Source: Escherichia coli | GTDB taxonomy: Bacteria > Pseudomonadota > Gammaproteobacteria > Enterobacterales > Enterobacteriaceae | Strand: one strand, 5' to 3' | NCBI RefSeq assembly: GCF_011045215.1 | Contig: NZ_CP049201.1 | DNA: 64,000 bases | Part shown: positions 17,627 to 33,728 of the stretch, one piece after another | How positions within the stretch are numbered: the first letter of the stretch is position 1 | How the letters are laid out: each line of letters starts with the position of its first letter | Translations under genes and position numbers: made by a program | The notes under the pieces: model-generated | The model's database searches: none | What the model was told of the DNA's origin: nothing | What the model saw: the letters and a program-made list of their open reading frames with translations, nothing else

Positions 17627-19039
17627 TCATTCCATTGCCTGATACACGGCCTCGCCAATTTGCTTCAGTGCTTCGCGATAGGTTTCGCTGAGCGGCAAAG
17701 CGCAGTTGATACGTAGACAATTACGGTATTTGCCGGAAGCCGAGAAAATCGAGCCTGCCGCCACCTGGATTTTCATGCGGTACAGCTGCCGCGCGACGCA
17801 GACCATATCGACCTGTTCAGGCAATTCTATCCACAGTAAAAATCCGCCTTTCGGGCGCGTAATACAGATTTCGCAGGGAAAATATTCCCGTATCCAGCAG
17901 GTATAAAGCGCCAAATTGCGCTGATAGATCTGCCGCATCCGCCGGATATGGCGATGATAGTGACCTTCCAGCACAAACGTTGCCGCCGCCATTTGCGTGG
18001 ACGGTACATTAAAGCTGCTGATGGCGTATTTCATATGCAGCAGTTTATCGTGATAACGCCCCGGTGCGACCCAACCCACGCGCAGGCCTGGTGCAATACT
18101 TTTACTGAACGAGCTGCACAACAGCACTCGCCCGTCGATATCCCAGGAATGAATGGTCCGCGGGCGCGGATACTCCGTTGCCAGTTCGCCGTAGACATCA
18201 TCTTCAAAAATCACAATATCATGACGCTGAGCGAGAGAGAGAACGGCCCGTTTGCGCGCGTCCGGCATAATAAATCCCAGCGGATTATTACAGTTTGGCA
18301 CCAGAATGATGCCTTTAATCGGCCACTGTTCCAGCGCCAGTTCCAGCGCTTCAACGCTGATGCCTGTTTCTGGATCGGTTGGGATTTCAATCACTTTCAC
18401 GCCCATGCCGCGCAGCATCTGCATCGAACCGTAATAACAGGGGGATTCGACCGCGACAATATCGCCCGGTTTACACACCGCCATTAACGCCAGCGACATC
18501 GAGTTATGGCAGCCGCTGGTGATAATGATGTCATCGGCGGTGACCACCGAGCCGCTGTCGAGCATCAGGCGGGCAATCTGCTCTCGCAACACTCGCTGAC
18601 CGGCTAACAAGTCATAACCGAGAACGGTTTGTAGATTATGCTGCACCACCCGGCTTAGCTCCCGCCAGAGTGGTTTCAGGCTGGGCGTTTCGACATCCGG
18701 CGTGCTTTTGCTTAACGGAACAATGGAACTGTCGCTATGCGCCTCCAGCATATCCAGTACCTGATCCCACTGAGTAATTTCCACCGGGCGCTGCACCGGA
18801 CGCGTCATCGGCGGCACTGGCGGTTGGGCTTTCCGTTGTGCGACAAAATAACCCGAACGCGGCTGCGGAGTGATGAGCTTCATCGTCTCCAGCGTCTGGT
18901 ACGCCTGCTGCACGGTGCTGATGCTGACGCCGTGCTCCTGACTTAAGCTGCGCACCGACGGCAATTTCTCCCCGTGACGATACAGCCCTTGCTCAATCCG
19001 CTCGGCAAGTAGAGTCGCCAGATGTTGATAACGCGTCAT
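17627..19039 (-). CDS. yjiR: MocR-type regulator (GntR-family HTH fused to PLP-dependent aminotransferase-like domain)
   Basis: 470-aa ORF; N-terminal wHTH, C-terminal fold-type I aminotransferase-like region; synteny. Confidence 0.85.
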   Translation of the reverse strand: MTRYQHLATLLAERIEQGLYRHGEKLPSVRSLSQEHGVSISTVQQAYQTLETMKLITPQPRSGYFVAQRKAQPPVPPMTRPVQRPVEITQWDQVLDMLEAHSDSSIVPLSKSTPDVETPSLKPLWRELSRVVQHNLQTVLGYDLLAGQRVLREQIARLMLDSGSVVTADDIIITSGCHNSMSLALMAVCKPGDIVAVESPCYYGSMQMLRGMGVKVIEIPTDPETGISVEALELALEQWPIKGIILVPNCNNPLGFIMPDARKRAVLSLAQRHDIVIFEDDVYGELATEYPRPRTIHSWDIDGRVLLCSSFSKSIAPGLRVGWVAPGRYHDKLLHMKYAISSFNVPSTQMAAATFVLEGHYHRHIRRMRQIYQRNLALYTCWIREYFPCEICITRPKGGFLLWIELPEQVDMVCVARQLYRMKIQVAAGSIFSASGKYRNCLRINCALPLSETYREALKQIGEAVYQAME

Positions 19040-19477: not shown

Positions 19478-21571
19478 ATGAAAGCCACAGAGGCTCGCCT
19501 ACTCGATTTTTTAAAACGTTCGCAGCAGTTTGTTATTCCCATTTATCAACGCACTTATTCATGGACCGGGCAACAATGTCGGCAACTTTGGGACGACATC
19601 ATTCGTGCCGGAAAGCGTGACGATATATCAGCACATTTTATCGGTTCGGTTGTTTATATAGAGCAGGGATTGTATCAGGTTTCTGGTATTTCTCCGTTGC
19701 TGGTCATTGATGGTCAGCAGCGGCTGACGACCGCAATGTTGCTGATTGAGGCTTTATCGCGCCATCTTGGCGAAGACGAAGTTTTTGATGGCTTTTCGGC
19801 AATGAAATTGCGTAATTATTATTTGCTCAATCCTTATGAGTCCGGCGAGAAAGGTTTTAAATTACTGCTGACCGAGACTGATAAAGACAGTTTACTGGCG
19901 TTAATAAAACAAAGACCAATGCCAGAAAACTATTCCCATCGAATAATGGAAAACTTTACTTTCTTTGATGAACAAATTGCCAAACTCGGTGATGACTTGA
20001 TCCCCTTATGTCGTGGGTTAGCAAAGTTATTAATTGTCGATGTGGCGCTTAATCGTGGTCAGGATAATCCGCAACTGATTTTTGAAAGTATGAACTCTAC
20101 CGGTAAGGCGTTAAGTCAGGCCGATCTGGTGCGCAATTTTATTCTGATGGGCCTCGAACCAGAGCATCAAACCCGGTTGTATGAAGATCACTGGCGTCCA
20201 ATGGAAGTCGCTTTTGGTCAGCAAGGTTACAGCGAATATTTTGACAGTTTTATGCGTCATTATCTGACGGTAAAAACGGGGGAGATCCCTCGGACAGATG
20301 AAGTCTATGAGGCATTTAAACTCCATGCCCGCAGCCAGCGTGTTGCTGAAAAAGGCGTAGATCGGCTGGTTGAAGATATTCACATCTACGCGGAGTATTA
20401 CTGTGCAATGGCATTGGGAAAAGAAAGTGACAAATCGCTTGCTACGGCTTTTCAGGATTTGCGCGAGTTAAAGGTCGATGTGGCGTATCCTTTCTTACTG
20501 GCGCTTTATCATGACTATAAAAATGACGATTTGTCTCACGAAGATTTCCTGAGCATAATTCGTTTAATTGAATCTTATGTTTTCCGCCGTGCAGTATGTG
20601 CAATTCCGACAAATTCTTTGAACAAGACATTTGCCACTTTTTATAAAGTTATTAATAAAGAAAATTATCTGGAAAGTATTCAGGTACATTTTTTGAATCT
20701 ACCTTCATATCGTCGTTTCCCCAACGATGATGAATTTAAACGGGAATTAAAAGTTCGCGATCTCTATAACTTCCGCAGTCGCAGCTACTGGTTACGACGA
20801 CTGGAAAACGATAAACGCAGAGAGCGCGTAGAAGAGTTTACTATTGAGCATATTATGCCGCAGAACGAAAATTTGTCGGCTAAATGGCGTGAAGAGCTGG
20901 GAAGTGACTGGCAACGCATTCATAAAGAATTATTGCATACGTTGGGGGATCTCACTTTAACGCGCTATAACTCCCGCTACAGTGACAGACCTTTCGCGGA
21001 AAAACGCGATATTGAAGACGGCTTTAAACATAGCCCGCTCTATTTGAATATCGGTCTTGGACAGTGCGAAAAATGGGATGAAGCCGCCATTCATGCCCGA
21101 GCCGATCGTCTGGCCGATCTCGCGGTTCAGGTCTGGCAAGCGCCTTCTCTTCCTGAAGAGGTTTTGGCTGTTTATCGGGGACAGCCTGAAAACAAAACCA
21201 GTTACAGCCTGAGTGATTATCCTTTTCTTGCTGATGGTTCGCATAGCCGGGTGTTATTCGATCATCTTCGCGATGAAGTTATGCGCCTGGACGCAGGGAT
21301 CACGCAGGAAGTATTGAAGCTATATATTGCGTTTAAAGCTGAAACGAATTTTGTTGATGTTGTGCCGCAAAAAAGCCGACTGCGATTGTCGCTTAATATG
21401 CAGTTTCATGAACTGGTCGATCCGAAAGGTATTGCCAAAGATGTGACAAATGTTGGGCGCTGGGGCAATGGCGATGTGGAAATTGGTTTCAGTGACCTCG
21501 CACAACTTCCTTACGTTATGGGATTAATTCGTCAGGCATTTGAAAAACAGATGGAGAGCGCGTTGGTCTAA
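19478..21571 (+). CDS. DUF262 (ParB-like NTPase) / DUF1524 (His-Me finger) fusion nuclease, GmrSD-family-like; candidate type IV (modification-dependent) restriction enzyme
   Basis: 697-aa ORF. N-terminal motifs IPIYQRTYSW, LVIDGQQRLTT and FESMNSTGKALSQADLVRNF are DUF262 hallmarks; C-terminal half contains EHIMPQ and GDLTLT (DUF1524-like), followed by a ~170-aa tail with no motif I recognise. Occupies the position of mcrBC in the K-12 immigration control region. Confidence 0.75.
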   Translation: MKATEARLLDFLKRSQQFVIPIYQRTYSWTGQQCRQLWDDIIRAGKRDDISAHFIGSVVYIEQGLYQVSGISPLLVIDGQQRLTTAMLLIEALSRHLGEDEVFDGFSAMKLRNYYLLNPYESGEKGFKLLLTETDKDSLLALIKQRPMPENYSHRIMENFTFFDEQIAKLGDDLIPLCRGLAKLLIVDVALNRGQDNPQLIFESMNSTGKALSQADLVRNFILMGLEPEHQTRLYEDHWRPMEVAFGQQGYSEYFDSFMRHYLTVKTGEIPRTDEVYEAFKLHARSQRVAEKGVDRLVEDIHIYAEYYCAMALGKESDKSLATAFQDLRELKVDVAYPFLLALYHDYKNDDLSHEDFLSIIRLIESYVFRRAVCAIPTNSLNKTFATFYKVINKENYLESIQVHFLNLPSYRRFPNDDEFKRELKVRDLYNFRSRSYWLRRLENDKRRERVEEFTIEHIMPQNENLSAKWREELGSDWQRIHKELLHTLGDLTLTRYNSRYSDRPFAEKRDIEDGFKHSPLYLNIGLGQCEKWDEAAIHARADRLADLAVQVWQAPSLPEEVLAVYRGQPENKTSYSLSDYPFLADGSHSRVLFDHLRDEVMRLDAGITQEVLKLYIAFKAETNFVDVVPQKSRLRLSLNMQFHELVDPKGIAKDVTNVGRWGNGDVEIGFSDLAQLPYVMGLIRQAFEKQMESALV

Positions 21572-21585
21572 CACGGCGAATAATA

Positions 21586-21609
21586 CCCGGTAGCACTGGT
21601 GCTACCGGG
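21586..21609. terminator. Perfect palindrome (cccggtagcac/gtgctaccggg) between the convergent DUF262 gene and symE; likely bidirectional terminator
   Basis: Read directly in the sequence. Confidence 0.55.
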
Positions 21610-21617
21610 TCAATGTA

Positions 21618-21959
21618 TCAGGCAACTTTCTGTTTACCCGCAATCACTCCAATAAACTCCTGCACCTGCTTTTGTTTACGTGCCGACAGTTTGCACACCT
21701 GGCGTAGCGACTGCATCAGTTCGCTCTCTTCGGCGGTGGGTGGTTGGGCGGTGAGGACAATACAGCCTTCCATCACTTTGACATCTACCGCCGTGCCGGT
21801 GGCAAAACCGGCGGCTTCCAGCCACTGACCTTTCAGGGTGATGGCGGGAATACGGCTGTAATCCGGGTAGCGACTCGCATAACTCACGGTTAATTGACGG
21901 TTATTTGCCGGGGAGACTTCTGCTTCGAACGGTTGTGCAATAGAATGCGTGTCAGTCAT
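21618..21959 (-). CDS. symE: SOS-induced toxin-like protein SymE (type I TA system toxin)
   Basis: ORF 21618..22016 trimmed to [34 protein letters not shown]... (113 aa), matching my memory of SymE. Confidence 0.85.
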
Positions 21960-22030
21960 AACTGCTATTCTCCGATAATAGTGATTGTGATTAGCGGTGC
22001 GGGTGTGTTGGCGCACATCCGCACCGCGCT
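21954..22030 (+). ncRNA. symR: Probable SymR antisense sRNA overlapping the symE translation start (coordinates approximate)
   Basis: From established knowledge SymR is cis-encoded opposite the symE 5' end; a stem-loop (gcggtgcgg...ccgcaccgc) at ~21994-22030 on the plus strand could be its 3' structure. Ends not determined. Confidence 0.35.
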
Positions 22031-22034
22031 AAAT

Positions 22035-22054
22035 ACCTGGATATATCATCAGTA
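22035..22054. promoter_or_regulatory. LexA box (acCTGgatatatcatCAGta) in the symE promoter region
   Basis: CTG-N10-CAG with AT-rich centre, about 80 bp upstream of the symE start. Confidence 0.7.
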
Positions 22055-22186
22055 AATACAGGGAAAGTCCAGCTAAAAATAGAATAAAATAGGCAGTTTC
22101 TGGAATAATTTAAATATATTTGCGTGAGTTATGATTGGCATGAAATAATAAAAAGCGCACCGGAAAGGTGCGCCAGAAAATAATGA

Positions 22187-25149: not shown

Positions 25150-25225
25150 TGTGAGTTCCGTAAATTAAGCAGCGGCCCAAATTTATCGGGCCGCAGAAGA
25201 AGAAATTGCCGGGAATGATACCGTG

Positions 25226-28925: not shown

Positions 28926-29839
28926 ATGACGGTTCCTACCTATGACAAATTTATTGAACCTGTTCTGCGTTATCTGGCGACAAAACCGGAAGGTGCAGCC
29001 GCGCGTGATGTTCATGAGGCTGCCGCGGATGCATTAGGACTGGATGACAGCCAGCGAGCGAAAGTCATTACCAGCGGACAACTTGTTTATAAAAATCGTG
29101 CAGGCTGGGCGCATGACCGTTTAAAACGTGCCGGGTTGTCGCAAAGTTTGTCGCGTGGCAAATGGTGCCTGACTCCTGCGGGTTTTGACTGGGTTGCGTC
29201 TCATCCCCAGCCAATGACGGAGCAGGAGACGAACCATCTGGCCTTCGATTTTGTGAATGTCAAACTTAAGTCACGGCCGGATGCCGTCGATTTAGATCCG
29301 AAAGCCGACTCTCCCGATCATGAAGAACTTGCAAAGAGCAGCCCGGACGATCGGTTAGATCAGGCGCTAAAAGAGCTTCGTGATGCGGTGGCTGATGAGG
29401 TTCTGGAAAACTTATTGCAGGTTTCTCCTTCGCGCTTTGAAGTCATTGTTCTGGATGTTTTGCATCGCCTGGGGTATGGCGGCCACCGTGATGATTTGCA
29501 GCGTGTTGGCGGTACTGGAGATGGTGGCATCGATGGTGTGATATCGCTTGATAAACTTGGCCTGGAGAAAGTTTATGTTCAGGCAAAACGTTGGCGAACA
29601 CTGTAGGCAGGCCAGAATTACAGGCATTTTACGGCGCACTGGCTGGGCAAAAGGCGAAACGTGGGGTGTTTATTACCACTTCTGGATTTACGTCTCAGGC
29701 GCGTGACTTTGCTCAATCCGTCGAGGGTATGGTGTTGGTTGATGGGGAACGCCTGGTGCACTTAATGATCGAAAACGAAGTAGGGGTTTCTTCACGTTTG
29801 TTGAAGGTGCCGAAACTGGATATGGACTATTTTGAGTGA
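28926..29839 (+). pseudogene. mrr: Mrr modification-dependent restriction endonuclease, apparently frameshifted
   Basis: Two ORFs (28926..29606, 226 aa; 29591..29839, 82 aa) in different frames jointly cover a ~304-aa Mrr; the frame changes near 29595-29606 inside the catalytic domain (…VQAKRW then stop, versus ANTVGRPELQAFYGAL… in the other frame). Confidence 0.7.
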
Positions 29840-29845
29840 AATATC

Positions 29846-33336: not shown

Positions 33337-33728
33337 AGTAAAACCTGGCATTTTACTCGTCGTCTTTTGGCTTACAGGTGCGGCAGCTGCGTTCGTTCAC
33401 CCCTGTCACTTACTGTTGTAAGCTCCCGGGGATTCACTCACTTGCTGCCTTCCTGCAAATCAAAATCCATAGAGTAATTTGTTAATCATAGGCCGAAGCC
33501 GTTCTAGGTTTGCGTTGCGTTTGAGGAGGTAAATTGACCGCTATCCTGCAGTGATGTTGCCAGAGATACGCGCGCGTAAAGTAAGGTAAATAACTGAGTG
33601 GTTATTTTAGGGATGTAAGCGGTCAGGAATGGCGGTGAGCGGTTGGGCAAGAATTATTCATCGGGTGGATATGTGATTGAGATCACAATAAAAATGCCCC
33701 TTCGACGAATGCGTGAAGGGGCTGGAGC

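Follow-up and report, generated by a model that had tools for sequence, protein, structure and literature searches.

The symE/SymR locus of Escherichia coli K-12

SymE and SymR from E. coli K-12 are the closest described counterparts of the locus analysed here. Kawano, Aravind & Storz (2007; PMC1891008) identified the 77-nt RNA RyjC/SymR antisense to the beginning of yjiW/symE. Mitomycin C induces the K-12 symE promoter, which holds a LexA site. The promoter of SymR lies within the symE ORF, and mutation of its -10 element abolishes the RNA (Kawano et al., PMC1891008). When this -10 element is inactivated, the level of symE mRNA rises by a factor of about 3 and that of SymE protein by a factor of more than 7. 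SymR is very stable and approximately 10-fold more abundant than symE mRNA, and SymE is degraded by the Lon protease, the effects of LexA, SymR, and Lon being additive (PMC1891008). RNase III is dispensable for the control exerted by SymR in K-12, and a translational block is therefore indicated for this RNA.

Orthology of the locus and its prevalence

The locus described in this work is located in a 64-kb stretch of E. coli DNA, referred to as the window, and was studied for the presence, integrity, and orthology of its sequence elements, its regulation and biochemistry being carried over from the K-12 experiments. It occupies the same slot as K-12 symE (b4347, formerly yjiW) and symR (b4625, formerly RyjC), from hsdS to the type IV restriction position of the immigration control region (ICR). 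It shares with K-12 (NC_000913.3) the 113-aa length of the protein, the 77-nt RNA, the 6-nt overlap at the 5' end of symE, and the places of both the LexA box and the upstream hsdS terminator. Over the alignment, which runs from the terminator of hsdS down to the stop codon of symE, both sequences are 95% identical, and homology to K-12 stops at that codon, beside the hairpin at 21585-21610. As differences, the window bears two further substitutions just upstream of the LexA box, and a GmrSD-family gene follows symE where K-12 holds mcrB. The features of the locus and of its neighbourhood are collected in Table 1.

Table 1. Sequence features of the symE/SymR locus and its surroundings in the window.
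Feature	Position	Strand	Basis or description
symE CDS	21618-21959	-	113-codon ORF; AbrB/MazE-like fold family
symE Shine-Dalgarno GGAG	21970-21973	-	sequence
SymR, 77-nt cis-antisense RNA	21954-22030	+	Rfam RF01809
SymR hairpin 1	21954-21992	+	predicted fold
SymR hairpin 2	21994-22027	+	predicted fold
Probable SymR promoter -10, TAGAAT	21941-21946	+	relaxed hexamer search; inside the symE CDS
LexA operator (SOS box)	22035-22054		20-mer, minus strand TACTGATGATATATCCAGGT; matrix score and K-12 homology
Candidate symE promoter hexamers, TGGACT-18-GATATA or TTTCCC-15-TATATC	22040-22071	-	relaxed search, 7/12 matches
Terminator-like hairpin and T-run 3' of hsdS	22154-22174	-	8-bp stem, 6 G-C pairs, tail TTTTATTATT
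Hairpin, 11-bp stem and 4-nt loop	21585-21610	either	fold approximately -21 kcal/mol
GmrSD-family gene	19478-21571	+	uninterrupted 697 codons; GmrSD_N, GmrSD_C, and DUF5655
mrr	28926-29845	+	1-nt deletion near 29596 relative to K-12, TGGCAGAA -> TGGC-GAA
yjiR	17627-19039	-	intact 470-codon ORF
YjiR protein			99.1% identity to K-12
HsdR protein			99.0% identity to K-12
HsdM protein			97.4% identity to K-12
SymE protein			95.6% identity to K-12
HsdS protein			44.4% identity to K-12 (EcoKI HsdS); target-recognition domains differ

The first-pass annotation, which had proposed an SOS/LexA-controlled symE with a cis-antisense SymR beside restriction genes, agrees in each of these elements with the annotated K-12 locus. 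Judging from these correspondences, the window locus is the orthologue of the symE-symR locus characterized by Kawano et al. 2007, a known and common one: with an annotated symE, it is found in about 2,870 of 5,426 complete E. coli genomes. The best RefSeq match, NZ_OZ197100.1, is identical over the 631-bp symE segment and approximately 98-99% identical, with indels, over the remainder. The window carries the common E. coli allele of a textbook locus, in which a cis-antisense RNA and LexA jointly restrain a harmful protein, and its significance extends little beyond correct annotation.

The SymE protein and its activity

The product of the symE ORF, whose ATG start codon lies at 21957-21959 on the minus strand, begins with MTDTHSIAQ and matches both Pfam PF08845 (SymE_toxin; E 1.4e-21, 76.8 bits against a cutoff of 29) and, over residues 1-112, the NCBIfam equivalog NF010128 'endoribonuclease SymE' (229.8 bits, cutoff 132). 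Compared with K-12 b4347, five substitutions (H22Q, V23L, G26S, A75T, and A101E) leave 95.6% identity. These matches place the protein in the SymE_toxin family, whose members have an AbrB/MazE-like fold and a length of approximately 113 aa.

The activity first proposed for SymE in 2007 was that of an endoribonuclease (Kawano et al., PMC1891008), and this proposal is favoured by the effects of SymE overproduction in K-12—co-purification with ribosomes, lower protein synthesis, and degradation of RNA—as well as by the name 'endoribonuclease SymE', which is still used by NCBIfam and RefSeq. However, a 2024 review reports, from Thompson et al. 2022, that SymE does not cleave RNA, but binds DNA without sequence specificity, and its overproduction results in an extreme compaction of the nucleoid. 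In agreement with this revision, the product is named 'nucleoid-associated protein SymE' in the current K-12 RefSeq annotation, and the fold of SymE is that of the DNA-binding antitoxins AbrB and MazE. An endoribonuclease toxin in the sense of the 2007 model, rather than a DNA-binding nucleoid protein, is accordingly regarded as unlikely, although it retains some weight; the window sequence itself does not discriminate between RNase and DNA-binding activity. The 'toxin' label used in the first-pass annotation is dated, since SymE now appears in that review as a nucleoid-condensing DNA-binding protein devoid of RNase activity.

The immigration control region and the proximity to restriction systems

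The island of the window, a variable restriction cassette between the anchors yjiA and yjiN, is the enterobacterial ICR. Gene order in the closest record is yjiN-mdtM-rpn-yjiR-yjiS-GmrSD-symE-hsdSMR-mrr-yjiA-yjiX-btsT, and the ORFs of the window match it, running as yjiR, yjiS, the 697-aa GmrSD-family gene, symE/SymR, hsdS, hsdM, hsdR, mrr, yjiA, yjiX, and btsT. The GmrSD-family gene replaces yjiT/yjiV/mcrCB of K-12. A recent review describes ICRs in which a GmrSD homologue takes the place of McrBC, and also reports symE symR as part of this region. SymE had been taken for the only fully conserved element of the island, which turned out to be wrong, as HsdR, HsdM, and YjiR are all closer to their K-12 counterparts than SymE (Table 1).

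Several observations concern the annotation and integrity of the neighbouring genes. Two RefSeq records (segment L001, 9919-12012, and segment L019, 5579-7672) have the GmrSD-family frame without interruption as well, yet list it as two features, a partial DUF262 pseudogene and a shorter GmrSD CDS; from the sequence, this split looks like an annotation artefact. The frame of mrr ends after 226 of 304 codons, with the downstream frame still encoding the Mrr C-terminus, and the frameshift represents either a pseudogene or a sequencing error. Conversely, yjiR is annotated as frameshifted in NZ_OZ197100.1, while it is intact in the window. A K-12 insert of approximately 135 bp between hsdM and hsdR (segment L002, 13111-13246) is absent from the window (25211-25222). 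Part of it resembles, at 88% and in inverted orientation, the window sequence downstream of btsT (33386-33458), and the insert is therefore probably a REP-type repeat.

The recurrent company of restriction genes raises the question of whether symE/SymR is functionally coupled to restriction, be it as an addiction module, as an anti-phage element, or as an SOS-induced protector of unmodified DNA. In E. coli, the type I systems next to symE come in two different gene orders, and its other partners vary (mcrBC, GmrSD, and BrnTA); SymE-family genes are also found near restriction-modification systems and mobile elements in other bacteria, as well as in a Pseudomonas defence hotspot. In the ST131-type NZ_CP019012.1, for instance, symE has yjiS as its immediate neighbour on one side and, on the other, hsdR of a type I system with the order M-S-R. 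As a further peculiarity of this record (segment L018, 9722-18549), the mcrBC slot is devoid of a type IV gene, and an additional restriction endonuclease and a BrnT/BrnA pair are present at the far end.

Nevertheless, all of this is association only. The search of the PADLOC defence models gave no match for SymE, the gene has its own putatively LexA-controlled promoter and is separated from hsdS by a terminator, and Kawano et al. interpreted the co-location as the gathering of selfish elements at hot spots (PMC1891008). A functional coupling to restriction is consequently judged quite unlikely, and the 'role linked to restriction systems' suggested in the first-pass annotation finds no support here, where the synteny with type I systems, already known, is all that is seen. 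The symE/SymR locus persists while the neighbouring cassettes change, which is an association and no evidence of a functional link. It is even less probable that the locus has been kept beside type I cassettes of different families through a job connected with them. If that were the case, the sequence-nonspecific coating or condensation of the chromosome by SOS-induced SymE might, for example, shield unmodified products of repair or recombination from the resident type I enzyme (restriction alleviation); alternatively, the job of symE/SymR might be the stabilisation of the island.

The LexA operator and the symE promoter

A CTG-N10-CAG core is found upstream of symE at 22037-22052 (CTGGATATATCATCAG), reading CTG-GATATATCAT-CAG on the symE strand, with 8 of the 10 central positions being A/T. 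The bare CTG-N10-CAG pattern was rejected as evidence of LexA binding because it is common (24 occurrences in the 64-kb window versus 12.4 expected), whereas its AT-rich form occurs only once in the window.

The site was evaluated with a symmetrised weight matrix built from 13 K-12 operators, each of them verified in sequence at the expected promoter. These textbook operators, confirmed in eight K-12 regions, comprise those of recA, lexA (two), uvrA/ssb, uvrB, and umuDC, together with those of sulA, recN (three), dinB, dinI, and dinG. The 20-mer at 22035-22054 reaches 14.6 bits and ranks first among the approximately 64,000 20-mer positions of the window; in leave-one-out scoring, the proven operators range from 12.0 to 26.8 bits, with lexA box 1 at 12.0 and dinB at 13.4. 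Random sequence of 64 kb would contain 0.19 sites of this quality on average, and 17% of such sequences hold at least one, so that the matrix score taken alone is suggestive. The identification is decisive because the position is base-for-base homologous to the studied K-12 operator, where the published heterology index is 7.9 and symE expression is LexA-dependent. As an imperfect 20-bp palindrome similar to TACTG(TA)5CAGTA with a score in the functional range, the site has the attributes expected of a LexA operator, and the LexA box with an AT-rich centre that the first-pass annotation had placed upstream of symE is borne out, the interval given there ending at 22054, the last base of this 20-mer.

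The K-12 symE/yjiW box (TACTGATGATATATACAGGT) and that of the window (TACTGATGATATATCCAGGT) differ in a single base, which changes ACAG to CCAG. This A-to-C change beside CAG, together with the CTGA arm, could lower the affinity for LexA, so that SOS control would be weakened or lost in the strain of the window and symE would be more or less constitutively transcribed, restrained only by SymR and Lon. Both arms do depart from CTGT-N8-ACAG, and the window box scores approximately 1.3 bits below the validated K-12 box (16.0 bits), which is itself of medium strength according to its heterology index; furthermore, AZT gave no clear induction of symE. However, the window box still surpasses the proven lexA box 1 and dinB operators in leave-one-out scoring. 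A C precedes CAG in 7 of the 26 half-sites of proven operators, and CCAG arms are present in those of uvrB, recN, dinB, dinI, and lexA box 2. Moreover, the exact 44-mer with CCAG is carried by 1,049 complete E. coli genomes, compared with 436 for the K-12 form, and CCAG is found in 8 of 9 sampled E. coli alleles, the CTG and CAG arms being invariant in all nine. The CCAG box is the majority E. coli allele and the K-12 box the exception, which argues for a functional wild type. Loss or weakening of SOS control, including the constitutive transcription that it would entail, is hence considered very unlikely, and the CCAG box, not the K-12 reference form, is the one that most E. coli strains use.

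With regard to the symE promoter itself, a strict sigma-70 consensus scan found none at 22040-22071, and the relaxed search retrieved the hexamers listed in Table 1. From these weak candidates (7/12), the LexA operator is inferred to overlap the symE -10 element. The intrinsic-terminator-like hairpin downstream of hsdS, which is identical in K-12, would insulate symE from hsd read-through and suggests that symE constitutes its own transcription unit. At the other end, the hairpin at 21585-21610, located between the convergent GmrSD-family gene and symE, is a possible bidirectional terminator; as it has no canonical T-run, it was not called by the terminator scan.

The SymR antisense RNA

The Rfam model RF01809 (SymR) is matched over its full length (model positions 1-77 of 77) with 90.9 bits (gathering threshold 61) and an E-value of 7.5e-18. 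The match starts exactly at 21954, which identifies the plus-strand stem-loop noticed in the first-pass annotation as SymR, with two predicted hairpins rather than one. The idea that the palindrome and the stem-loops are chance intergenic features, which could appeal to the frequency of bare CTG-N10-CAG motifs and of equivalent matrix scores in random sequence, has a negligible probability and is already refuted by this Rfam match and by the location of all elements at homologous K-12 positions, kept in about 2,870 genomes.

The minimum free energy of SymR is -39.9 kcal/mol, compared with -21.6 +/- 3.1 kcal/mol for dinucleotide shuffles (z = -5.89). Among nine E. coli alleles, 97% of cells are paired and no double-sided changes are observed; shuffles do as well, the divergence being too low. 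Because these alleles provide no compensatory changes, the structure rests on the Rfam model and on thermodynamics. SymR overlaps symE at 21954-21959, six nucleotides corresponding to the first two symE codons including the start codon, and spans both the GGAG ribosome-binding site and the ATG, in the geometry published for K-12. CUCC, the complement of the symE Shine-Dalgarno sequence, is situated in the apical loop of the predicted hairpin 1, an arrangement that, according to the fold, is suited to start antisense pairing.

Four substitutions separate SymR of the window from that of K-12. Three of them affect the apical loop of hairpin 1 (the Shine-Dalgarno region), and the fourth converts an A.C mismatch of hairpin 2 into a G-C pair. 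As in K-12, SymR ends without a U-tract terminator. A strict sigma-70 scan found no SymR promoter. TAGAAT, retrieved by the relaxed search, precedes the SymR 5' end by 7 nt and is invariant in nine E. coli alleles, and the 54 nt upstream of the SymR +1 are identical in the window and K-12. TAGAAT is probably the -10 element of SymR, the exact hexamer assignment being deduced from the sequence.

Comparison of the nine E. coli alleles also reveals where this region varies. The most variable part of the symE/SymR overlap, 21970-21976 (alignment columns 71-77), is at the same time the apical loop of SymR hairpin 1 and the Shine-Dalgarno region of symE, which appears in GGAG, AGGGA, AAGGA, and GAGA-like versions. 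Since the variable loop is the Shine-Dalgarno region, the strength of translation initiation and the antisense contact loop change together. In the ST131-type allele NZ_CP019012.1, the apex of hairpin 2 stands in inverted form, as its exact reverse complement (GTGTTGGCGCAC -> GTGCGCCAACAC); this inversion of the hairpin tip leaves the stem intact and alters the loop (alignment columns 109-114, corresponding to 22006-22017 in the window).

Regarding annotation, NC_000913.3 is the only one of the RefSeq records examined that carries an ncRNA symR feature. In every non-K-12 record, the symR sequence is present and symE is annotated, but the RNA gene is not, which makes it easily overlooked.

Proposed regulation of symE in the window

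Taken together, the analysis indicates that the window symE/SymR locus most likely works as in K-12, an assignment in which we place high confidence and which no feature of the sequence contradicts. In undamaged cells, LexA bound at 22035-22054, overlapping the symE promoter, would hold transcription low. Meanwhile, a constitutive promoter within the symE CDS would produce the stable 77-nt SymR. As its sequence is fully complementary to the 5' UTR of symE together with the ribosome-binding site and the first two codons, including the start codon, SymR is predicted to block translation and also to modestly reduce the level of symE mRNA, and any residual SymE protein would be removed by the Lon protease.

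Upon DNA damage, RecA-stimulated cleavage of LexA is expected to increase symE transcription, so that some SymE would accumulate. When abundant, this protein of AbrB/MazE fold would inhibit growth through non-specific DNA binding and nucleoid condensation, according to current evidence, or alternatively through the cleavage of RNA, as in the original proposal.

Comparison with other SOS-controlled and ICR loci

The symE/SymR locus resembles other SOS-controlled type I loci of E. coli, namely tisB/istR-1 and dinQ/agrB, in the combination of a LexA-repressed toxin with a constitutive small RNA that blocks its translation. Despite this similarity, there are clear differences. The toxins TisB and DinQ are small hydrophobic membrane peptides, whereas SymE is a 113-aa soluble protein with an AbrB fold. 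Likewise, the RNAs istR-1 and agrB are divergently encoded or partly complementary to their targets, while SymR is a true cis-antisense RNA lying over the ribosome-binding site and the start codon.

With respect to the island, the window is similar to the ICR loci of the Eco94GmrSD type, which are likewise bounded by yjiA and yjiN and hold type IA hsdRMS, mrr, symE/symR, and an Rpn gene, with a GmrSD-family gene (DUF262/DUF1524) in the mcrBC slot. Unlike those loci, the window carries an mrr gene with a 1-nt deletion and an hsdS with its own target-recognition domains (44% to EcoKI HsdS).
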